Positions 2,167-51,928 of a stretch of DNA of 58,892 nt are shown piece after piece. Source of the DNA: a virus (taxonomy: Duplodnaviria; Caudoviricetes); the IMG/VR virus record IMGVR_UViG_3300012912_000001, positions 1 to 58,892 of that record. One strand, written 5' to 3'. The notes under the pieces are model-generated. The model was not told where the DNA came from and searched no databases. It saw only the letters and a list, made by a program, of their open reading frames with translations. A program made the translations under genes and the position numbers. Numbering within the stretch: position 1 is the first letter of the stretch; the number at the start of each line of letters is the position of its first letter.

Positions 2167-3270
2167 GTGAAGAATCTCGTAGCCGAACTCATGGAGCGCG
2201 AGCCGGAGAAGTGGCTCGACATCCTAGCCGATACCTACAAGGTTTCGGCTACGCGAGACGGGGACCTCGTCTCGCTCAAGTACGACCAACTGGAGTCGCC
2301 CATGCACGAGCCAATCGTGCAGCAGTGCCGTGGCATGGTCGTGCACACGGCGGTGCGCCGTGTGCTGGCATGGCCTTACAACAAGTTCTTCAATCACGGC
2401 GAGGCTGGCGCTGCAGACATCGACTGGTCGAGCGCTCGCGTACAGGAGAAGCTCGACGGTTCGCTCATGATTCTCTACGCCGAGGGTACGGATGACGGCC
2501 TGATGTGGCGCGTTGCGTCAAGCGGGACGCCCCGAGCCGGCGGTTCGTATGGTAGCGACAGTCGCACCTTCAGCGAAGCGTTTTGGGAGACTTGGTTTGG
2601 GCTTGGCCTCGACATCGAGGCCGCCAACTTCGAGGCGACCTACATGTTCGAGCTGTGCGATTCGCCGAATCGCGTCGTCGTGCGACACAATAAGCCGCGC
2701 CTCGTGCTCCATGGAGGGCGCTGGCTGGAGTCCGGCGTCGAGCTCACGCGGGACGAGCTAGTGGAGGCGGCGTACGGCATGGGCTGCGAGCTCGTCAAGG
2801 AGTTCCCCATCCACGGCATCGCCGATGTCATCGCTGCGGCTGATGCGCTTGACCCCATCCAGCAAGAGGGGTTCGTGGTCGTCGACGACCGTGGCCATCG
2901 GGTCAAGGTCAAGTCGCCACGCTACGTCATCCTGCACCACCTCAAGGGCGAAGCGACCCCACGTCGCGCCATCGAGCTGTGGCAGACCGGAGAGACTGGC
3001 GAGCTCCTGGCCCACTTCCCGGAGTTCCTGACGGTCATCGGTCCAGTCCAGGAGCGATTGGATGCCATCGCCGTGCAGTCGGTGCGCGACTTCCATGAGG
3101 AGTTCCCGCGTCCATCGCGCAAGGAGTTCGCCCTGGCGGTCAAGGACCGCCCGCACGCCACCGTGCTGTTCCGTCTCATCGACCATGGCTCCGAGGCCAG
3201 CCTCGACCACGCCAAGGCCATCATGCGACGCCAGACGCCGGCATCGCTGGAAAGGATGCTGGGGCTATGA
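2167..3270 (+). CDS. RNA ligase, T4 Rnl1-like nucleotidyltransferase
   Basis: QCRG...PYNKFFN, motif I EKLDGS, FEL, EGFVV and RVKVKS motifs. Confidence 0.88.
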   Translation: MKNLVAELMEREPEKWLDILADTYKVSATRDGDLVSLKYDQLESPMHEPIVQQCRGMVVHTAVRRVLAWPYNKFFNHGEAGAADIDWSSARVQEKLDGSLMILYAEGTDDGLMWRVASSGTPRAGGSYGSDSRTFSEAFWETWFGLGLDIEAANFEATYMFELCDSPNRVVVRHNKPRLVLHGGRWLESGVELTRDELVEAAYGMGCELVKEFPIHGIADVIAAADALDPIQQEGFVVVDDRGHRVKVKSPRYVILHHLKGEATPRRAIELWQTGETGELLAHFPEFLTVIGPVQERLDAIAVQSVRDFHEEFPRPSRKEFALAVKDRPHATVLFRLIDHGSEASLDHAKAIMRRQTPASLERMLGL

Positions 3271-5695: not shown

Positions 5696-6901
5696 TCACG
5701 TCTCCACCCGCGGCATGTACTCGTGCCCGTAGTACCCGTACGTCGATGCAATGGCGTTATGACAGGTCATCTCCTGCGGCTGCGGAGAGAGGTGTCGAGC
5801 GCCCATACCGGGTAGAGGGCGCAGCTCCGGGTGCGTCCGGAACGTGTAGAGCTTGCGCGTACCGTCCGGCTCCGGGGTGCTGTTCGTCACCTCGATGGCG
5901 ACGTACGGCTCGTCATCAGGCTGCTCGATGCGGAGCAGCCGGCGCGGCTGTCCCAGTTGATCCACGTCTGAGTGAATTACCGTGGCGCCGATGTCGCGCA
6001 GGTAGCGGCCTGAGTCGCCCTTGTTGTAGGCGCCGACCAAGACACGCCTGACCTCGGCGTTGGGATCGTCTCGGATATCCGAAGCGGTCAGCGCGCCGCT
6101 CGCCATAGCCGCGCCTCGCTCAGGCGTTAGGCGGATGCCGTGCACTGCGTAGACCGCATACCCATCGGGCCAAGCCAATGCCGGCCCGTCGACGCGATGC
6201 AGTCGACGCTGCGAGTCGAACCGAGCTACCGATGGATGCTGGACCAGAATCGTCACTCCAGACCATGAGAACGCCATGAACGCAGCGCGCGCCATACGCT
6301 CCATCAACGCCAGCCGACGCTCCTGCTGCTCCGTGACTTTGACTCCGATATCAACGGCAAAGCGATAGTAAGCAAGCCAGTAGTTGTCGGCCTGACCCCA
6401 AGACCACCACTGTCCCCATGCTTCTTTGAGCTGGTCCCCGAGCTGGTCCCCGAGCTGGCCCCTGAGCTGGCCCCTGAGCTGGTCCCAGAGCTGGTCCCCG
6501 AGCTGGCCCCTGAGCTGGTCCCAGAGCTGGTCCCTGAGCTGGTCCCTGAGCTGGTCCCAGAGCTGGTCCCTGAGCTGGCCCCAGAGCTGGTCCCCGAGCT
6601 GGTCCCCGAGCTGGTCCCTGAGCTGGCCCCAGAGCTGGTCCCCGAGCTGGACCCCGAGCTGGACCCCGAGCACGTGCTTCAGCGCCCAATGCATAAGCAT
6701 TGCCTGAATCGGCGACTGCGCCCACAGCAAGAACCGTGGCGCATCGACACCTACTTCTGCGTACGCGTCCAGAACCGCCTGACGCCCGAGCGCAGCGCAC
6801 TCATCGTCATGACCAGTCCGAGTTCCGATGGCGCGAGCCTCCTCGCGCCACTCAACCAATCGACTCTCTTGTTCCGGCGTGAGCTTCGTAATTTTCTTCA
6901 C
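5696..6901 (-). CDS. DUF6745-like domain protein with tetrapeptide repeat tract
   Basis: N-terminal LTPEQ..L..W, QSP motif, RLHRVDGPALAWPDGYAVYAVHG, NAEVRR, VTNSTPEPDGT. Confidence 0.8.
   Translation of the reverse strand: MKKITKLTPEQESRLVEWREEARAIGTRTGHDDECAALGRQAVLDAYAEVGVDAPRFLLWAQSPIQAMLMHWALKHVLGVQLGVQLGDQLWGQLRDQLGDQLGDQLWGQLRDQLWDQLRDQLRDQLWDQLRGQLGDQLWDQLRGQLRGQLGDQLGDQLKEAWGQWWSWGQADNYWLAYYRFAVDIGVKVTEQQERRLALMERMARAAFMAFSWSGVTILVQHPSVARFDSQRRLHRVDGPALAWPDGYAVYAVHGIRLTPERGAAMASGALTASDIRDDPNAEVRRVLVGAYNKGDSGRYLRDIGATVIHSDVDQLGQPRRLLRIEQPDDEPYVAIEVTNSTPEPDGTRKLYTFRTHPELRPLPGMGARHLSPQPQEMTCHNAIASTYGYYGHEYMPRVET
6428..6667 (-). repeat. 20 tandem 12-nt units CAG CTC NGG GNC encoding Q-L-[G/R/W]-[D/G/V]
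   Basis: Direct reading: GAGCTGG[T/C/A]CCC[C/T/A] repeats on the plus strand. Confidence 0.95.
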
Positions 6902-8243: not shown

Positions 8244-8438
8244 TCACCAGCGCACCAGGTATTCGTCGTGCGGGTGGACGACGTTGGCGTCGTGTGCCCC
8301 GCCGTGGTCACTGTAGCGAGCGCAGCGGTACTCGATTTCCACTTCCCCAGCAGGAAGACGGATGACGTACGCGCACCGGGACTCGGGTCCCTGTGCCACA
8401 TGGATGCGTATCTTTTCGGTTCGCTCGGTTCGAGGCAT
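8244..8438 (-). CDS. Hypothetical protein (MPRTERTEKIRIH...)
   Basis: Starts 7 nt after a predicted -10. Confidence 0.5.
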   Translation of the reverse strand: MPRTERTEKIRIHVAQGPESRCAYVIRLPAGEVEIEYRCARYSDHGGAHDANVVHPHDEYLVRW

Positions 8439-8445
8439 GAGACCG

Positions 8446-8556
8446 ACCATAACGCTCACGGATGACGCTGTCAACATCGATGGCCGGCATCGACGCTGCG
8501 CGTCACATGCCCCGTGTCGATTATCGGTTGACACCGTCAACATCGAGCCGCATGAT
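8446..8556. promoter_or_regulatory. Divergent promoter pair, each with a palindromic operator
   Basis: Minus: TTGACA-N17-TATGGT (operator 8461-8475). Plus: TTGACA-N17-CATGAT (operator GTTGAC-ACC-GTCAAC, 8527-8541). Confidence 0.75.
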
Positions 8557-8563
8557 GGGCGAC

Positions 8564-8728
8564 ATGAAGACGAAGATGACCAAGGCCAACGTGATGAAGA
8601 TGGTCGGATGCCGCGTCTCCTACCGAGGTGACGACCTGCTCATCGAAAAGACGGAGCACATGGGAGCCGGCGGGTGGATGCTCAAGCTTTCATCGGGCGC
8701 CATCCTCCGTCCGGAGGAGCTGAAGTGA
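8564..8728 (+). CDS. Small hypothetical protein, probably leaderless
   Basis: ATG 7 nt after the -10 CATGAT. Confidence 0.5.
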   Translation: MKTKMTKANVMKMVGCRVSYRGDDLLIEKTEHMGAGGWMLKLSSGAILRPEELK

Positions 8729-8782
8729 ACGTAATCCAGCCTCTCGCACAGTTGGCATCCCCCCCCCGCCACCTGACCGCTG

Positions 8783-8860
8783 GGCGAAACGCCGCATGCG
8801 TCACCCCTCTGCATGTGGCGTCCGCTGGACTCGGCCTACCAGCGCTGATGAAGCCAGGCC
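8783..8860 (+). ncRNA. Hammerhead ribozyme, type II topology
   Basis: GGC-GAAA-stem III (8790-8800/8810-8820)-UC cleavage site (GUC)-stem I CGCUGG/CCAGCG-CUGAUGA-(A)-GCC; loop I GGCCU can pseudoknot with 3' AGGCC. Confidence 0.85.
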
Positions 8861-8877
8861 TTAGAAAGGGAGAAACA

Positions 8878-9084
8878 ATGAAGAAACATAAGATTGGAAA
8901 GATGACACTTCGCAGCGAGGTTGTCAGGAATCTGGACCTTGCAATGATCAGAGGTGGAGACGGATTCACCTCTGCTATTGGCTGCCCATCGGCCTTCGCG
9001 TCCGACTGCTGCACCGTTCAGCCCTCGGCGCTGACCATGGCAGCGGCCCCAGATGGGGGCCGTAACCAGACCTGTTGCAACTGA
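8878..9084 (+). CDS. RiPP/lanthipeptide-precursor-like peptide 1
   Basis: MKKHKIGKMTLRSEVVRNLDLAMIRGG leader, then a Cys/Ser/Thr-rich core (5 Cys); RBS AAAGGGAG. Confidence 0.7.
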   Translation: MKKHKIGKMTLRSEVVRNLDLAMIRGGDGFTSAIGCPSAFASDCCTVQPSALTMAAAPDGGRNQTCCN

Positions 9085-9115
9085 GCCATACCCAAAGACT
9101 TAACGAGGAGTGCTT

Positions 9116-9478
9116 ATGGCGACACCGACATCAGTTACGATCCCTCCTGCCCTCATCGACTACGAGAGCATGGAGCTCGCCGAGATGACCGATGCCGGTG
9201 TCGGTATCCGGGCGCGCCCGCCGGCGCTCACCATTCGCTCGATGGTGCTGCGGGCTCTACGCGCCCAGCTCGAGTCAGGGCCGTTCCTCGCCGCCTTCGA
9301 CGCCGGGCTCCTCGACGCGCACGACGAGGAGCCGCGTAATTCGGACCGCATCTCCATCGTCTTCGGCGAGCGCCCACTCGGGCCTAGAGCGCTCACGGTA
9401 CCGGTTCCCTACACGACGCTGGCCCAGGACTGCATCTCGTGGCTGGCCCGCATGCGACAGGCGAGGGGCGAGCGATGA
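9116..9478 (+). CDS. Hypothetical protein
   Basis: RBS GAGGAG. Confidence 0.5.
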   Translation: MATPTSVTIPPALIDYESMELAEMTDAGVGIRARPPALTIRSMVLRALRAQLESGPFLAAFDAGLLDAHDEEPRNSDRISIVFGERPLGPRALTVPVPYTTLAQDCISWLARMRQARGER

Positions 9479-9665
9479 GATTCAAGTTCCTGATTGATCC
9501 TCCGTCACATCCGGACGATGTTGACGTCGACGTGTCGGAGTTCAGTGGCCCGGCCATCTGTCGGGCCAAGACCAGACCTATACCAGCGCAGCACATGCAG
9601 GCCATAGCGGAGCTGGCCGAGCTGGGGTTCGCCCCGGCGGCGATCGTCCGCAAGGAGAAACTGAA

Positions 9666-10333: not shown

Positions 10334-10363
10334 GTTGACAACGTCAACAGCGGTGCCTATGGT
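10334..10363 (+). promoter_or_regulatory. Promoter/operator
   Basis: GTTGAC-AAC-GTCAAC; TTGACA-N17-TATGGT; ATG at 10370. Confidence 0.75.
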
Positions 10364-14320: not shown

Positions 14321-14350
14321 CTTGACAACGTCAACAGCGCGATGCACGAT
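14321..14350 (+). promoter_or_regulatory. Promoter/operator for precursor peptide 2
   Basis: CTTGAC-AAC-GTCAAC; TTGACA-N17-CACGAT. Confidence 0.7.
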
Positions 14351-14358
14351 GGCCTGAC

Positions 14359-14529
14359 ATGAAGCACCACAAGCGAAGGCTGCAGCTGAATCGAGACACG
14401 GTCGCTGTGCTCACCGGAGACCAGACGCGCCGCGTGCTGGGCGGACGCGACAAGCCGGTAACGACGTCGACCATCACCATCATCACGTGGGACTGTCCGG
14501 GCGTTACGGACACGACCTGCTTCCACTAG
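14359..14529 (+). CDS. RiPP/lanthipeptide-precursor-like peptide 2, 56 aa (absent from the ORF track)
   Basis: MKHHKRRLQLNRDTVAVLTGDQTRRVLGG-RDKPVTTSTITIITWDCPGVTDTTCFH. Confidence 0.75.
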   Translation: MKHHKRRLQLNRDTVAVLTGDQTRRVLGGRDKPVTTSTITIITWDCPGVTDTTCFH

Positions 14530-14728
14530 AAGTGCCGAGCAAGCGCATCCCTCGACCGAAACGCACGTCGTGGAAGACCCACGGGTGGCGACGGATGCGG
14601 TCGAAGACCACGAGGGACATCAACCGTTCGAACGGATTTTGCGTGAACGACAACATGAAGCGCTCACACGGACCAGCGACGCACGGCGTGCGCTGTGAGC
14701 GTTGCCACCTGGTCCACAGGAGGTCAGC

Positions 14729-22801: not shown

Positions 22802-23211
22802 TCCTTGCCTCCGGCCTGGATGCGCATGACCCCCTGCGTGGTGCAGACGACCTGTGCGCGCAGCATCAGGCTCCCCAGATTACCGAGGTGCACGGAGCAT
22901 CCACCGGCGGTTCCGCCTGGAATGTTGATTTGGAGGTTGGTGTTCGTGCCGGCGCCGGCGGGGGAGAACGCGACGTAGACGCCGCTCGTTGGGTTCTCCT
23001 GAATCCAGTCGCCGGCCGTCGTTGACGAGATGGCCACCTCGGGGAACTCGGAGCTCCAGAACGTCACCGTTCCGACGAGCGCGGCATCCCATTGGATGTG
23101 GACGTGCTGGATGAGCGACGCATCGCCACCGAGCCCATAGTTGGCGGGGGTTCCGCCGGTAACGGTCTGGAGACCCTGCTTCGCGGGATTCGGCTGTCGG
23201 ATTTGCGTCAT
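22798..23211 (-). CDS. Putative virion protein
   Basis: Beta-rich; lies in the late operon. Confidence 0.5.
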   Translation of the reverse strand: MTQIRQPNPAKQGLQTVTGGTPANYGLGGDASLIQHVHIQWDAALVGTVTFWSSEFPEVAISSTTAGDWIQENPTSGVYVAFSPAGAGTNTNLQINIPGGTAGGCSVHLGNLGSLMLRAQVVCTTQGVMRIQAGGKE

Positions 23212-26200
23212 CTATTTGCCCTCATGTCAAGGGAGGTCATGGCTTGCTGGCCGAGTTGGATGGGCCCGGTCAATCCGGGGGCTCCCTGCGGAGGGGGCTG
23301 GCCTGGAGCTCCGGGCTGCGCGCCGGAAGCGCCTGCGGCCGGGGCGGCGAGGTAGGCGAGGCTCTGCGGCTGCATCGATGGATGCACCGGGATGCGGTAC
23401 ATGATGCTGATGGCGATCTGCCGCGCGTATGGGAGCTTCGCCTGCATCTGCGGCGCGGTCTTGATGAGCATCATCTGCGCGAGCTTGAACAGCTCGGGGT
23501 AGACGTATTGGAGCGTCTGCGCGCCCTCGCGCGAGAAGTGCCCCTTGGCTAGGTCTTCGAGCACCGACACCGGATCTGACACGGCGTGGATGTACCTGCC
23601 CCACTCCTCGAGCGCTGCCTTCGATGGGCGCCACTTTCCGTCGCCGGGAAGCATCCCTGGGGGGAGGACCGGCTTGGGCGCCTTGCTCGCGATGAAGTCG
23701 ATGCCGCGCTTCACCTGCGCGGCGATAGCACTCTGCAGCTCGGCGTCTGCGGTCTGGTACCGGTCGCCGATGGCGTGCTCGATGGCGCCCGGCTGCTGCG
23801 CGCGTGCAATCTCGTCCATGCGCGCGTGATAGAGCGCGGCGAGGTCTTTCGTCTTCTTCGCGTCCCCGCCAGGGAACAGCGAGTACCCGAGCGTGACGGC
23901 GGGTCCGGCGGAGACCTCGGAGACCTTACGAGCGCCGCGTCCGGCCTTGGAGAGGAGGGCCTGCGTGGCGCCGTTGATGCGGTCCTGCGTCTCCGACATG
24001 CGCTGTGCGATGAGCGCTTCGGTGGAGCGACCGACGGAGCCGCCCTTGCGCCCTAGGATGCCGAGCACGGCGCGCGCCTTGAGCACGGCCCCGAGCACGG
24101 GGCCTATGAGGGGAATCCGGCTGAGCATCGGCGTGTGCACGCCCATGGCCCCCAGTAGCTCGAGTGCGGTGCCGGCGTCGGCGGCAGCACCAAGCACCCC
24201 GCCGCCACCCGGCGCGGCCTTGGCCGCCTTCTTGGCGCCACGCGCCTGCGCCTGCGCGTGATCGCGCGCAAGCGCCATGTTGACTTCCGCGTCCGGCTCG
24301 ACGACGGTCGCGTCCGGTCCACCGAATGCCGCTCTGACCTTGGGCGTCTTTCCTCTCGGCTCGACGATGGTCGTGTCGGGCAAGGCCGGTCTGCTCGCTA
24401 GCCCGTCCGCCAAGACGCGAGCGCGGATGCCGGGGTCAACCGCCGTGCGCTCTAGGTCGTCCGCCGCCCGTGCCGCGCTGGCCGCCATGCGGTCTGCTTG
24501 TCGCTGGCTCGCAGTCCGAAGCTTCGACGCCCGGTCGACGGCGGTCCGCGGGGCGTTCGCGCCGAGCAAGTCGGCGACGTCAGCGCTGGCCTGCTCGTGG
24601 TCGCCGATGATTTTCGCTGCGCGCTCCAGCGACGGCCCCATGTCGACGTTCTTGCCGGTTCGCTTCTTCAGCAGGCGCTCGATGGCGGCGTCGTCGGCCA
24701 CGCGCTGCATGTCCTCGGGCATGAGGCTGGACACCTTGGTCTTCGCCTCGTACGTCGCGAGCGCGTCCATATCGGGCTCGCCCAAGATGCGAGACAGGCC
24801 CTCGTATGAGGTCACCGTCCCCTTCTTGCCTGTGCTCGCGTCCGGCGTTGGGCTCTGATTCGGCACCGCGTTGCGCAGGGCCTCTTCGAGGTCGATGCGC
24901 TTGGGGTTCGCCGCCTGCTCCGCTGCGCCCATGTCCGATGCCGCGAAGTTCTTCGCGTTCGCCTTGCCTCGGAAGTGCTCGGCAGCAGCCTCGGTCTTCG
25001 CGGCCTTCTCCGCGACGTACTTCTCTTCAGCGGGCTTCGAGATGGACTTGAAGCTCTTGCCTTCGTCGAGCGCGCTCTTTGTGCCCGAGAGCAGCGCCAT
25101 CAGGTCGTCGTCAGTCGTGACGGCGGCGGTCTTCGCCGATGGGCCAGCGTCGGCTGCGAACTGCGTCGGTCGGCCACCGAGGGCGCGGAGGTCTGGCTCG
25201 GCGACCGGAGCTGTGGGCGTCGATAACTCGGCGGCGATGGATTCGGGCATCGCCTTGCCAGCAAGGGCGGATAGGTCTGCTGCCGGCTCCAGCGCCGCGC
25301 CCTTCGGAGCTTGAGCCTTGAGCCACTCGGCGCGCTCATGAAGCCCCTGCTTGACTTCCTTCTTCGCCGCCGCGCTGAGCCCGGAATCGTCGACCATCCG
25401 GTCAATCGTCGGTCGAAGCTGCTCATACTTCCGGGCGAAGTCTACGAGCTGGCGGTCGATGTCCTTCTCCGATAGGGAGCCGAAGACCTCGCCGGATGGC
25501 TGGCTCGGGTTGCGCATGGTCTCGAGTTCGCGGACCGGTGCTGCGAAGTCCTTCCGGCCGCCCTGAGCGCGGTAGATGAGCGAGCCGCCGTTGTCGATGC
25601 GGTGCACCACCCCGTCGGCATCCAGAAGCATGTTGTCGTACCCGGTGCCTACGGCATCCCAGTTCGCGAGCCATGCATCGACGACGAACCCGTCTCCGGC
25701 GTTGGCCGTCGCGAGCGCCTGCGGCGAGGAGGTCTTGCCGGGAAGCTCCCTCGACATCATCGTCCGCTTGCCGGCCTGCTCGACGACTTCCGTTTCCGGG
25801 GCGGACACGCCGAACTCGCGATAGATGCGGTTCGCCAGGTGCTCCACCTCGACACGGTCAGAGCTGCCGCGATAGCTCTTCCCGAACCAGTTGGTTCCGT
25901 TCTCGTCGGTGTACCAGCGGCCGCCCCGCGTTCCGCCGGCGGCGCGTTCGGATGGGGTGAACGCGTGCCGCGGCTGTTCCGCGGCGTCGACGGGCGTGAC
26001 GTCTGCGGGTCCGAACTTGCGCAGCAATTCGTCGGCATCAACGAGTTCAGCCTTCGGCCGCGCTGTCGCCGGGTAGAACTGGATGGCTACCGGTCGATCG
26101 GAGGCGATGGCGGACATGAAGCGGTCAGCGCCGCTGTCGAACTTATAGCCGAACGTGCTGCGTCGGCTGGTCCCGGGGATCGGGTCTCCCAGGACAGCCC

Positions 26201-28976
26201 TCATCTCGATGGCTGGGGTGCTCTCGTCGGACCACGATGGCAAGCTGTCGACGGGCTCGACGTGGAGCTTCTTTCCGATGAACTGGCTCGGCCGCAGGAC
26301 GAAAACGTGCTCGCGCGGGTTCAGCCCATCGCTTCCGCCGACTTCCGCGGCCTCGGGGACCTGGGTTATCGGGCGAGGCTCGGAGGCGAACTGCTTTTTG
26401 GGTCCGAATTCGATGTTGAAGCCATCCGGGATGGCAGTCGCCTCCGGCGCGGCATCCGGCATGCTCAGCGCGAGCCGAATTGTCTTGGGGCCGGAGGCAG
26501 ACGCCTCTTCGATGCCGGTTACCGTGAACTTCCCGCCGCGTCCGAGAAGAAGCTCGCGCTCCTTCGGGAACTCACTTGGAATGGCGAGCGTCGGGTAGCC
26601 TTCAGGTACGGAGATGTCGAGCTTGATGCCGTTGCTCTGCTCACCGAGGAGCCAGCTGGCGTAGTCGCGGGCTATCTGGTCATCGTATGACGTGGAGACG
26701 AAGCCGGGGTCGACGAAGGAGTCGCCGACTTTCAGATTACCGACGGCCTTGACGGCCGCGGGGTCATGGATTCCTCTGGCCAAGACCATCGGGCGCGGCG
26801 CGGGGGAGCGCGCGAGAGCGTTGTCGAGAGTGACCGCCAAGTCGCGGATGTCGGCGTCTACGGCCTTGAGCGACGCGCCTCCGATGTTGCCGTGAGCGCG
26901 GCGCAGTGCACCGTTGATTCGGGCGTACAACCCGTTGTTGCTATACGACTTGGCGACATCTTGTTCTGCAGGGGAGAGAGACCGCCGAGCTCGCTCGGCC
27001 AGCTCGAGAAACTCGTCCTCTGTGACTCTGCCGCCGCCGGTTGACGAGGGTGGGCCCGAAGAGGGGGCAGAGGGGGCGGCCTCCCCGTTCATGATGGCGG
27101 TCCGACGCTCGCTGATGCGATCCCGGAGCTCGCCTAGGCTCTTCTGCTCCGGCGCATCGGCCGGGTGTGCCTCCATCGCGTTCTCGATGTCGGCGCTCAA
27201 CCTGCCGAGGTCGTCCTCGGACATCCCGCTGATGTCCATGGCGTGGTCGAACTTGGGAGCCGGCGGGGGCTCGACAATCTTCGCCGCCTCGGCTTGGTCC
27301 CAGATGTCGCTGAGCTTGGGGTTCTGCTTGGCCGCGGCGGCCCGCTTGCCGTACGTGTCGCCGAGCTCGAGAGGCGGCGACTCGTGGGCGGGAGGCGTCT
27401 CGACCTTCGGCGTAGCCCGGCGAGCCTTGGGGCCGGCGACTCCGGTCGCGTCGAGCGAGCTCGGCGTGACCCGTCCGCCGCCCAGCGCCGAGAGGTCGGG
27501 CTCTGCAGCGACCGCCGCACGGGCCAGCTCCTCCGGCGTCTTGATACCTCCGACACCGGGCGCGCTGAACTCCCCGACTGGAACACCTTGACGCGTCCCC
27601 ATGCCGCCGCCGAGAGCTGCTTCGAAGTCAGCGAGCGACTGTGGGTCGTCGAGGGCCCCGCCGCCTGCGGCGAGCCAGTCCCCAGATTTGCCGAGGCGAT
27701 TCTCGAGGCCCGCGACCGCTTCTTCCGTCCGGCCTACCCCGCCGCCCCCCGACATCGACTTCTGCGCTTGGTTCGCCGCCGCGGCGAGCTTCTCGCGTGC
27801 CTGGTCATCCTCGAGAGCAGCGAGAGCGAGCTCCCTCGGGGACATGAAGCCATCGCCCTGCCCGGCCGGGGAGAATTCGTCGACTGGAACCCCCGCCTTT
27901 CGCAGGCTCAGCTCGGAGCTTGGCGCCATTCCAGCGAGCTCATCCTCGACGGTGATGAGCTTCCCGATGTCGTCGAGTTGGTCGCCGCCATCGGCTATCC
28001 AGGCCTTGAGCTTGGCCTGGCTCGATTCCAGCCGCTGCGTCGCCTCTGCAAGCGCGGCGGTGTCAGCCGTCGTCGAGGCCTGCTCGACGATAACGTCGGG
28101 CGCGACGCCGCCGAACGCGGTGCGCGTGATGTGCTCGTTGCCCGCTGCAACGCCGGCCTTGGCCTCGTTTTCGGCCAGCTGCTGCCTCGCAGCAGCGAGC
28201 ATCTGATCGCCGTCCGCAACGCTGTCCTTGAGCGCGGTCGTTGCTTCCTGCTGGACGACCTTGCCCGCTTCCTTGGAGATTTCGCTCCGAGGGAAGAGAG
28301 ACCGCGCGCGGACCAACGCAGAGCCGGCGAGGGAAAACGTACCGCCAATTGGGGCGGCGAACAGCGCGCCCTTGCCCATGCCGCCAACGAACCCCTCTGC
28401 CGAGAGCGGCTTGTTCTGGAGCGCGGTCTCGCTGAGGTAGGCGCCGCCGCCGTACAGCGCGCCTTCCGCTGCCGCGCCGGCAGTGGCCGCCCCAGCACGC
28501 GCGAGCGCGCCGGCGCCCTCTCCGGCGAGGCCCGATGAGACGGCGTGGCCGAGCTTCGAGATGGCGCCCGCCGGAGTCGACGCGAGCCCCTTGGCAATGA
28601 GCCCGGCTTCGGCGCCAGCGGAGGCGCCGCCGGTGAACAACGCCGGAGCGAGCGAGCCGCCGAAGTTCCCGACGAACGAGGAAACTGGGTTCTCTTCCTT
28701 GTAGCCCTCGACGGCCTCGCGGCCGCCAAGGCCGCTGATAGCGACGTCGCTGAGACCGGCCGTGAGGCCGCTCAGCGCGCCGAGGCCAGTCGCCTTGACG
28801 GCGCCGCCAACGCCGCCGTAGGTCTCCGCGCGGACGTCCTTGTAGGCGCGCTGGGCCTCCTCCTCGGAGCCTTCCGGCGCGAACCCCTGGGATAGATACG
28901 CGGAGAGGTGCTCCTCGGGGACGCCGTAGGTCCTCCCCTCGGGGCTGACGACGTTGATGGTGCGCGGTTCGGGCAT
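23208..28976 (-). CDS. Giant internal virion/DNA ejection-like protein with ADP-ribosyltransferase and kinase-like domains
   Basis: Gly/Ala-rich hydrophobic N-terminus; ART motifs Y..IN..LR, LARG, FVSTS, ERELLL; kinase-like G..GG, FGK, E.LA..IY, DAWLANWD, DN, RIDNG. Confidence 0.8.
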   Translation of the reverse strand: MPEPRTINVVSPEGRTYGVPEEHLSAYLSQGFAPEGSEEEAQRAYKDVRAETYGGVGGAVKATGLGALSGLTAGLSDVAISGLGGREAVEGYKEENPVSSFVGNFGGSLAPALFTGGASAGAEAGLIAKGLASTPAGAISKLGHAVSSGLAGEGAGALARAGAATAGAAAEGALYGGGAYLSETALQNKPLSAEGFVGGMGKGALFAAPIGGTFSLAGSALVRARSLFPRSEISKEAGKVVQQEATTALKDSVADGDQMLAAARQQLAENEAKAGVAAGNEHITRTAFGGVAPDVIVEQASTTADTAALAEATQRLESSQAKLKAWIADGGDQLDDIGKLITVEDELAGMAPSSELSLRKAGVPVDEFSPAGQGDGFMSPRELALAALEDDQAREKLAAAANQAQKSMSGGGGVGRTEEAVAGLENRLGKSGDWLAAGGGALDDPQSLADFEAALGGGMGTRQGVPVGEFSAPGVGGIKTPEELARAAVAAEPDLSALGGGRVTPSSLDATGVAGPKARRATPKVETPPAHESPPLELGDTYGKRAAAAKQNPKLSDIWDQAEAAKIVEPPPAPKFDHAMDISGMSEDDLGRLSADIENAMEAHPADAPEQKSLGELRDRISERRTAIMNGEAAPSAPSSGPPSSTGGGRVTEDEFLELAERARRSLSPAEQDVAKSYSNNGLYARINGALRRAHGNIGGASLKAVDADIRDLAVTLDNALARSPAPRPMVLARGIHDPAAVKAVGNLKVGDSFVDPGFVSTSYDDQIARDYASWLLGEQSNGIKLDISVPEGYPTLAIPSEFPKERELLLGRGGKFTVTGIEEASASGPKTIRLALSMPDAAPEATAIPDGFNIEFGPKKQFASEPRPITQVPEAAEVGGSDGLNPREHVFVLRPSQFIGKKLHVEPVDSLPSWSDESTPAIEMRAVLGDPIPGTSRRSTFGYKFDSGADRFMSAIASDRPVAIQFYPATARPKAELVDADELLRKFGPADVTPVDAAEQPRHAFTPSERAAGGTRGGRWYTDENGTNWFGKSYRGSSDRVEVEHLANRIYREFGVSAPETEVVEQAGKRTMMSRELPGKTSSPQALATANAGDGFVVDAWLANWDAVGTGYDNMLLDADGVVHRIDNGGSLIYRAQGGRKDFAAPVRELETMRNPSQPSGEVFGSLSEKDIDRQLVDFARKYEQLRPTIDRMVDDSGLSAAAKKEVKQGLHERAEWLKAQAPKGAALEPAADLSALAGKAMPESIAAELSTPTAPVAEPDLRALGGRPTQFAADAGPSAKTAAVTTDDDLMALLSGTKSALDEGKSFKSISKPAEEKYVAEKAAKTEAAAEHFRGKANAKNFAASDMGAAEQAANPKRIDLEEALRNAVPNQSPTPDASTGKKGTVTSYEGLSRILGEPDMDALATYEAKTKVSSLMPEDMQRVADDAAIERLLKKRTGKNVDMGPSLERAAKIIGDHEQASADVADLLGANAPRTAVDRASKLRTASQRQADRMAASAARAADDLERTAVDPGIRARVLADGLASRPALPDTTIVEPRGKTPKVRAAFGGPDATVVEPDAEVNMALARDHAQAQARGAKKAAKAAPGGGGVLGAAADAGTALELLGAMGVHTPMLSRIPLIGPVLGAVLKARAVLGILGRKGGSVGRSTEALIAQRMSETQDRINGATQALLSKAGRGARKVSEVSAGPAVTLGYSLFPGGDAKKTKDLAALYHARMDEIARAQQPGAIEHAIGDRYQTADAELQSAIAAQVKRGIDFIASKAPKPVLPPGMLPGDGKWRPSKAALEEWGRYIHAVSDPVSVLEDLAKGHFSREGAQTLQYVYPELFKLAQMMLIKTAPQMQAKLPYARQIAISIMYRIPVHPSMQPQSLAYLAAPAAGASGAQPGAPGQPPPQGAPGLTGPIQLGQQAMTSLDMRANR

Positions 28977-51690: not shown

Positions 51691-51897
51691 ATGAAAAAAT
51701 CCATCAGCAAGTTGTCGCTCTCCTTGGAGAGCGTGAGGATTCTCAGCGCGCCTCAGCTTCGGCTCGCGGGCGGAGCCCAAGCCATAGAGACCTGGCTCAT
51801 CGAGTGCTACACGACCGGGTGCACCTGGACTGACTTCGAGGGTGGATGCATGCCCTCCTACCAGGACACCTGCTACTCAGTCAACGCTCAGTGTTGA
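51691..51897 (+). CDS. RiPP/lanthipeptide-precursor-like peptide 3
   Basis: MKKSISKLSLSLESVRILSAPQLRLAGG-AQAIETWLIECYTTGCTWTDFEGGCMPSYQDTCYSVNAQC. Confidence 0.75.
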   Translation: MKKSISKLSLSLESVRILSAPQLRLAGGAQAIETWLIECYTTGCTWTDFEGGCMPSYQDTCYSVNAQC

Positions 51898-51922
51898 CAA
51901 CGTCAGCTGCAGGCCCCACAGT
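51893..51922 (+). promoter_or_regulatory. Promoter/operator
   Basis: GTTGAC-AAC-GTCAGC; TTGACA-N17-CACAGT; ATG at 51929. Confidence 0.65.
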
Positions 51923-51928
51923 AGGCCA

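Follow-up and report, generated by a model that had tools for sequence, protein, structure and literature searches.

Does the intergenic region just ahead of a small peptide gene in the genome of an uncultured soil phage encode a self-cleaving RNA, or does it only resemble one? Here we report an analysis of the candidate type II hammerhead ribozyme at positions 8783-8860 of the plus strand of a complete IMG/VR virus record of 58,892 bp, which is referred to below, at its full length, as the window. According to the part of Perreault 2011 (PMC3088659) that was available, type II hammerheads are common in bacteria, and in most of them loop I pairs with the bases that immediately follow stem II, in a pseudoknot of 4 bp or more. 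The same part of that report describes hammerheads that flank prophage genes and proposes that they process long phage transcripts into gene-length mRNAs. In Desulfovibrio vulgaris, three type II hammerheads cleave in vivo, and one of these adjoins genes of phage origin, as described in the available portion of PMC8782182.

The window has direct terminal repeats and a G+C content of 65%. Its genes include those for a DnaB-like helicase, a replication initiator, an exonuclease VIII-like protein, and the large terminase subunit (TerL), as well as for a portal protein, tail proteins, an amidase, and an Rnl1-like RNA ligase, and this combination of structural and replication genes identifies it as the genome of a tailed bacteriophage. 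The sequencing runs that contain this phage are labelled as soil metagenomes, and no RNA run was listed among them. The RNA ligase is encoded at 2167-3270 on the plus strand (phrog_562, E 4e-44), and no polynucleotide kinase/phosphatase was recognised among the small ORFs that neighbour it; a link between this ligase and the ribozyme products would be pure speculation. The 401-aa product of 5696-6901 (minus strand) contains a DUF6745 domain (E 8e-35) and a long internal run of near-perfect (D/G)QL(R/W/G) repeats, and residues 667-824 of the 1922-aa virion-module protein encoded at 23208-28976 (minus strand) match a PHROGs family of ADP-ribosyltransferase exoenzyme toxins (E 8e-8). The 1922-aa protein is likely internal to the virion and ejected from it, and would carry an enzymatic domain.

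The initial annotation of this locus had described a full hammerhead core with its parts in order, and each of these parts was found at its place when the sequence was read again. The elements of the ribozyme are as follows.

8783-8785, plus strand: 5' strand of stem II, GGC, in which C8785 is C11.1 (read from the sequence; descriptor)
8786-8789, plus strand: core GAAA, positions G12, A13, A14, and A15.1 (sequence; Rfam alignment)
8789-8821, plus strand: stem III hairpin of 12 bp, consisting of A15.1-U16.1 (A8789-U8821) and 11 further pairs, with the 9-nt loop UCACCCCUC at 8801-8809 (sequence; minimum free energy (MFE) and centroid folds; descriptor)
8822/8823, plus strand: predicted cleavage site between C17 (C8822) and C8823, after G8820 U8821 C8822 (core position; family chemistry, from the available portion of PMC8782182)
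8823-8844, plus strand: stem I hairpin of 6 bp, CGCUGG at 8823-8828 with CCAGCG at 8839-8844, and the 10-nt loop ACUCGGCCUA at 8829-8838 (sequence; fold; descriptor)
8833-8837, plus strand: pseudoknot strand within loop I, GGCCU (sequence; descriptor; loop shuffles)
8845-8851, plus strand: core CUGAUGA, positions C3 to A9 (sequence; Rfam alignment)
8852, plus strand: extra A between A9 and G10.1 (sequence)
8853-8855, plus strand: 3' strand of stem II, GCC, in which G8853 is G10.1, pairing with GGC at 8783-8785 (sequence; descriptor)
8856-8860, plus strand: pseudoknot strand of the 3' tail, AGGCC, immediately after stem II (sequence; descriptor; loop shuffles)

No position of the catalytic core is changed: CUGAUGA, GAAA, and the A8789-U8821 pair are present, and H17 is C8822 rather than G. 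Stem III had been annotated with 11 bp; these run from C8790-G8820 to G8800-U8810, two of them being G-U, and the count becomes 12 with A8789-U8821. The 6-bp stem I was likewise found as annotated. Loops close off both stem I and stem III, and the 3-bp stem II is open, being made by the 5' and 3' ends, which is the type II permutation. G8853 and C8785 are able to form the G10.1-C11.1 pair, which A8852 separates from A9. The pseudoknot consists of five Watson-Crick pairs at offset 0 from stem II, one pair above the minimum of 4 bp, and a Watson-Crick pseudoknot of this length was attained by 2.2% of loop I shuffles.

In computed folds, stem III appeared in both the MFE and the centroid structure, and stem I in the MFE structure as well. 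The MFE was no better than that of shuffled sequences (z of -0.8, -0.9, +0.45, and +0.13), a comparison that is uninformative, as usual with such small motifs. Folding revealed no convincing alternative pairing that would mask the Shine-Dalgarno sequence of the next gene, and no U run follows the stem III hairpin, as a terminator would have.

The initial annotation had proposed a search against the Rfam hammerhead models, and its outcome was divided. A scan of the window at gathering thresholds returned no match. The best family at the region was nonetheless Hammerhead_II (RF02276), which aligned to 8782-8863 over its full model length (1-66); its 26.4 bits fall short of the gathering score of 37. 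The corresponding E value was 9.1e-5 when this family alone was run on this genome, 0.0026 when all families were run on 401 nt, and 0.38 for the whole window with all 4227 families. We also searched by structure, using a descriptor of our own that demands the exact core, minimum lengths of 5 bp for stem I, 4 bp for stem III, and 3 bp for stem II, a G10.1-C11.1 closing pair in stem II, and zero or one inserted base. In the window it matched the 8783-8860 element alone, and it had 0 matches on either strand of 600 first-order Markov genomes equal to the window in size and dinucleotide composition.

Additional support came from a covariance model, R1, built without the window from 17 natural hammerheads that carry the extra A, with stems I, II, and III as its structure. 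Its one match in the window, at 8781-8867, scored 58.5 bits, inside the range of the 17 training members (51.9-72.9). The comparators had been found by a 22-base pattern taken from the candidate, which makes the R1 score partly circular, and only about 21 bits of it, from stems and spacing, are independent. As a control for this circularity we scored 69 decoys, loci with the same 22 fixed bases that are not hammerheads; these reached 15.1-36.9 bits, the best of them 21.6 bits below the window site. The pseudoknot is scored by neither RF02276 nor R1. Judged from the sequence, the element at 8783-8860 is very probably a type II hammerhead and more than a chance resemblance.

An odd feature of the element is A8852, and the initial annotation had held that an extra A at this place is tolerated in natural active hammerheads. 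This is supported by the (+) hammerhead of CChMVd, in which, according to the available part of PMC1636495, an additional A10 stands between A9 and G10.1, with a moderate drop in trans-cleavage rate. The window has in common with it the single extra A at the A9/G10.1 junction. The CChMVd RNA differs in being a viroid replicon and not the mRNA of a DNA phage, and in that source its extra A is ascribed to the overall fold of the viroid.

Further cases were sought with the pattern GGCGAAAC-N15-45-GTC-N16-30-CTGATGA-A-GCC. In viral contigs it occurred at nine loci, six of which scored above the Rfam gathering score, at 40.7-47.1 bits (two of the six are identical); the other three comprised two that are hammerhead-like by eye and one AT-rich chance match. 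In metagenome contigs it occurred in at least 118 stretches, with 80 loci among the matches listed, and these were mostly coding sequences with the peptide motif LMKP, by eye from FabD-like and ABC ATPase-like genes. Taken together, the matches listed from both scans represent 89 loci, of which 70 gave no automatic parse, three were duplicates, and 16 were distinct parsed hammerheads. With the addition of L031, in which stem I is bulged, the 16 make up the working set of 17 distinct natural sequences among the matches listed, to all of which the extra A is common by design of the search pattern. The canonical pattern without the extra A (GGC..CUGAUGA-GCC) is far commoner, with at least 133 stretches in phage contigs. 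Canonical type II hammerheads from IMG/VR (L157-L236) often occur several to a contig, the contig of L209-L211 having three and those of L159, L160, and L166 two each.

In 15 of the 16 parsed comparators, loop I and the tail form a helix of 4 bp or more that starts 0-2 nt after GCC, in agreement with the earlier description of the GGCCU/AGGCC pairing as typical of type II hammerheads. The letters of these pseudoknots differ from case to case (UGGCA/UGCCA, UCGGCU/AGCCGA, GAGCA/UGCUC, UGACC/GGUCA); it is therefore the pairing that is kept and not the sequence. In the window, the pseudoknot begins right after GCC and a single nucleotide separates its end from the 3' strand of stem I, a geometry within 1-2 nt of the comparators. 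The window's stem I, at 6 bp, is shorter and its loop I, at 10 nt, longer than in most of them.

Among the matches listed, the nearest architectures are those of L065 and L105 from metagenome contigs, both of which have the extra A, a 3-bp GGC/GCC stem II, and a pseudoknot right after GCC as in the window: L065 combines a 13-bp stem III with a 6-bp stem I, a 10-nt loop, and a 5-bp pseudoknot, and L105 a 13-bp stem III with a 7-bp stem I, an 8-nt loop, and a 5-bp pseudoknot. Three loci from IMG/VR phage contigs (L037, L033, and L030) have the same GGC-GAAA...CUGAUGA-A-GCC frame with the pseudoknot right after GCC. All five have stem, loop, and pseudoknot sequences unrelated to those of the window, so that they count as family analogues for which homology with this locus cannot be demonstrated; their flanking genes differ as well.

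Compared with the type II family as a whole (RF02276, and the description in the available part of PMC3088659), the window element has the same core, the same short stem II, and a pseudoknot right after stem II. It has the same setting too, intergenic and on the sense strand between small phage genes. It departs from the family in its 26.4 bits against 37, its extra A, its 12-bp stem III, and its 6-bp stem I with a 10-nt loop, in having GGCCU/AGGCC where the consensus pseudoknot is UGG../AGCC, and in being the sole such element in its genome, whereas clusters are common. The assignment to type II made in the initial annotation is upheld by an architecture equal to that of natural phage and metagenome hammerheads above the Rfam cut-off and by an R1 score within the family range.

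Conservation of the locus itself is where the case is weakest. A blastn search with 8300-9500 against the phage collection gave no match. A TerL search identified 18 related loci, and in 11 records of these TerL relatives RF02276 had no credible match, the best score being 15.5 bits. The closest complete relative, G001, is a genome of 58,397 bp with a TerL 58% identical to that of the window and with structural and replication modules common to both; for the window genes that lie between 4407 and 10764, neither it nor a second complete relative, G002, has a single homologue, and G001 is without an RF02276 match. Near-identical phage DNA was found in a contig from a sequencing run of a second soil sample, which within 8300-9600 differs from the window only at 8732 and 8758 and has an identical ribozyme. 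Other contigs from the four runs compared are short, and none spans 8731-9185. Since the sole other copy found is identical in the ribozyme and the relatives are without the region, there is no compensatory change to count at the locus, and covariation is seen only across analogous members of the family.

The position of the element relative to the surrounding genes and signals was examined over the features below.

8528-8556, plus strand: promoter-like site TTGACA-17-CATGAT, the -35 of which overlaps the operator-like palindrome TTGAC-N3-GTCAA (motif count)
8564-8728, plus strand: upstream cistron of 54 aa, probably leaderless, with its ATG 7 nt past the -10 and in frame with the listed ORF 8462-8728 (sequence; GC3 of the frame 0.79)
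8866-8872, plus strand: Shine-Dalgarno sequence AAGGGAG, 5 nt ahead of the ATG (sequence)
8878-9084, plus strand: peptide ORF of 68 aa with a leader ending in GG and a Cys-rich C-terminal part (sequence; one homologue)

Codon-position G+C points to plus-strand coding on either side of the ribozyme. Within this rightward operon, it would lie 220 nt into the predicted transcript, intergenic and on the sense strand, after the 54-aa ORF, which has no family match, and before the 68-aa ORF. The site at 8528-8556 is the likely start of the ribozyme-carrying transcript. The window contains four copies of the motif TTGACA-N17-YAYGRT, where 0.02 would be expected, at 8446-8474 (minus strand) and at 8528-8556, 10335-10363, and 14322-14350 (plus strand). 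The three plus-strand copies carry the extended TTGACAnCGTCAACA together with the TTGAC-N3-GTCAA palindrome, and the minus-strand copy deviates. At the three copies read, an ATG stands 7-8 nt past the -10 (8564, 14359, and, on the minus strand, 8439), which suggests leaderless early transcripts and a common operator at these promoter-like motifs. A variant of the motif is present near 51894-51925 on the plus strand. No promoter-like site was predicted between 8729 and 8877, and no plus-strand terminator-like site before 11064.

The initial annotation placed the element just upstream of the ribosome-binding site, with 55 nt from the cut to the ATG, and the coordinates agree: with the ATG at 8878, the leader of the predicted 3' product measures 55 nt. 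Counted from the end of stem II, the distance to the start codon is 23 nt in the window, and a start preceded by a Shine-Dalgarno sequence stands 22-46 nt past stem II in seven of seven hammerhead-like viral comparators, the start of L032 having been read by eye from the downstream sequence, as its contig ends too early for the ORF filter. The same relation was sought in the canonical set, where 57 distinct hammerheads were parsed among 80 listed loci: a Shine-Dalgarno-led start was present at 20-29 nt in 34 of the 57 and at 10-39 nt in 43. For comparison, 4.1% of random positions in the phage genome under study have such a start at 20-29 nt. The test is a crude one: a Shine-Dalgarno-like tetramer had to lie 4-16 nt ahead of an ATG or GTG, and no filter on ORF length was applied because the flanks are 100 nt. 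The position just ahead of the ribosome-binding site is the usual one for phage type II hammerheads.

The downstream ORF had been annotated as a precursor peptide, a label that amounts to a guess. The ORF has a good Shine-Dalgarno sequence and a single homologue in 5.8 billion proteins, P0001, which is 91% identical, with all differences within the N-terminal 27 residues and an identical C-terminal part. Relatives of the peptide were found neither in the searched viral contigs nor in the metagenome contigs. Against the label stand the absence of any match in Pfam, PHROGs, and NCBIfam, a weak GC3 of 0.64 vs 0.79-0.80 for the neighbours, and the fact that no modification enzyme was found beside the ORF, the neighbours being without known family. 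Three small plus-strand ORFs (8878-9084, 14359-14529, and 51691-51897) are alike in their Lys-rich N-termini ending in GG and their Cys/Thr-rich C-terminal parts. The 14359-14529 ORF barely reaches the class I lanthipeptide leader model NF038153 (22.1 bits, with a cut-off of 22), and no modification or export gene was recognised in the scanned parts of the genome. With a curated-model match and a nearby modification or export gene taken as the marks of a class I lanthipeptide or GG-leader precursor, neither was found for 8878-9084.

A second hammerhead candidate at 14521-14575 on the plus strand was rejected, as it scored 21.9 bits with RF00163 against a gathering score of 34 and has an irregular stem II and the 5' core CUAGAAGU instead of CUGAUGA. 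Its 3' half, CGAAACGCACGUC, is perfect and its stem I has 7 bp, and it overlaps the stop codon of the GG-leader ORF 14359-14529. This RF00163-like element is probably a degenerate or chance match.

We consider it unlikely that the 8783-8860 element is a hammerhead descendant which has become slow or catalytically dead through its extra A, short stem I, and long loop I, a relic that would serve at most as an intercistronic hairpin, its 12-bp stem III protecting the upstream message. Such decay would agree with an Rfam score below the threshold and with the reduced activity of the CChMVd ribozyme that has the extra A (available part of PMC1636495). According to the accessible portion of PMC3088659, changes of stem length around the pseudoknot can lower cleavage rates by orders of magnitude, and the degenerate type I hammerhead-like element at 14521-14575 implies that decayed copies may occur in this very genome. 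A decaying ribozyme is, however, hard to reconcile with a core in which every position is intact and with a pseudoknot that keeps the geometry of the comparators to within 1-2 nt. Moreover, the extra A is found in 17 natural hammerheads in which stems and pseudoknots are kept by differing sequences, which argues that the form is under selection.

That a strong hairpin in a GC-rich intergenic region was joined by a fortuitous CUGAUGA and GAAA, with no ribozyme ancestry, appears very improbable. The E value of 0.38 for the whole window against all families would permit it, and in a survey of about 250,000 windows 26-bit matches are expected somewhere by chance; in addition, 70 of the 89 listed pattern loci were not parsed as hammerheads, the raw matches from bulk metagenomes being mostly coding sequence. 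These considerations are outweighed by the failure of the descriptor to find a single match in 600 random genomes, by the distance of the site from the best R1 decoy, and by the pseudoknot as additional evidence outside both models, and also by an intergenic, sense-strand position at a family-typical distance from a Shine-Dalgarno-led start. Least credible of all is a 6C-like small RNA or another structured element formed by two hairpins with C-rich loops at 8743-8826. There, RF01066 gives 25.3 bits (E 0.25 in the 401-nt scan), and both a C run at 8760-8768 and the stem III loop UCACCCCUC fit its pattern, yet its gathering score of 47 is far above this value and the family does not appear in the whole-window list at E up to 1, for which 6C RNA was rejected. 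It would, besides, leave the intact hammerhead core, stem I, and the pseudoknot unexplained.

We thus favour, with good confidence, the reading of 8783-8860 as a genuine pseudoknot-stabilised type II hammerhead, located in a rightward early operon of a 58.9-kb soil phage, that would cut its own RNA ahead of a peptide message. Transcription would probably begin from the promoter-like site at 8528-8556 and yield an RNA carrying, in order, the leaderless 54-aa ORF 8564-8728, the ribozyme, the Shine-Dalgarno-led 68-aa ORF 8878-9084, and other small ORFs beyond it. Formation of all three stems and of the loop I/tail pseudoknot would be followed by self-cutting between C8822 and C8823. Of the two products, the upstream one would have the 12-bp stem III hairpin at its end and a 2',3'-cyclic phosphate on 8822. 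The downstream one would carry a 5'-OH on 8823 and open with the hairpin of stem I at 55 nt from the ATG, so that the peptide message would gain a fixed, short, and context-free leader. What the sequence shows is the motif with its statistical support, its resemblance to accepted members of the family, and where it stands among the genes; from this we infer the transcription start, the cleavage, and any effect on stability or translation, including the stabilised or uncoupled peptide expression proposed in the initial annotation.

Engineered insulators of the RiboJ type are self-cleaving hammerheads placed just upstream of a ribosome-binding site, where they remove upstream RNA and leave a fixed 5' hairpin leader; these parts are synthetic and derived from a satellite-RNA hammerhead. 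The likeness of the predicted cut in the window to such insulators is a functional analogy only. A broader and rather doubtful proposal is that phage type II hammerheads, including that of the window, do more than cut long messages and act as fixed-distance translation-initiation modules, in which the tail and pseudoknot stand at a near-constant 20-30 nt from the start and the 5'-OH hairpin leader made by cleavage would set ribosome access. The module would then take the operon from its first, leaderless cistron to a lanthipeptide-like peptide with a GG leader that depends on the Shine-Dalgarno sequence. The phage has three ORFs of this sort and may use the peptide against competitors or the host.

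The family, its pseudoknot, and its placement between phage genes were already described in 2011, and the window is a further example. It opens no new question, because this arrangement has been in print since then, as the available part of PMC3088659 documents. What it adds is a divergent type II hammerhead whose score, being below the gathering threshold, lets it escape standard Rfam annotation, and whose extra A belongs to a recurring natural minority form in phages. The tight spacing of these ribozymes before start codons supports the view that they help to shape the 5' leaders of single phage genes.
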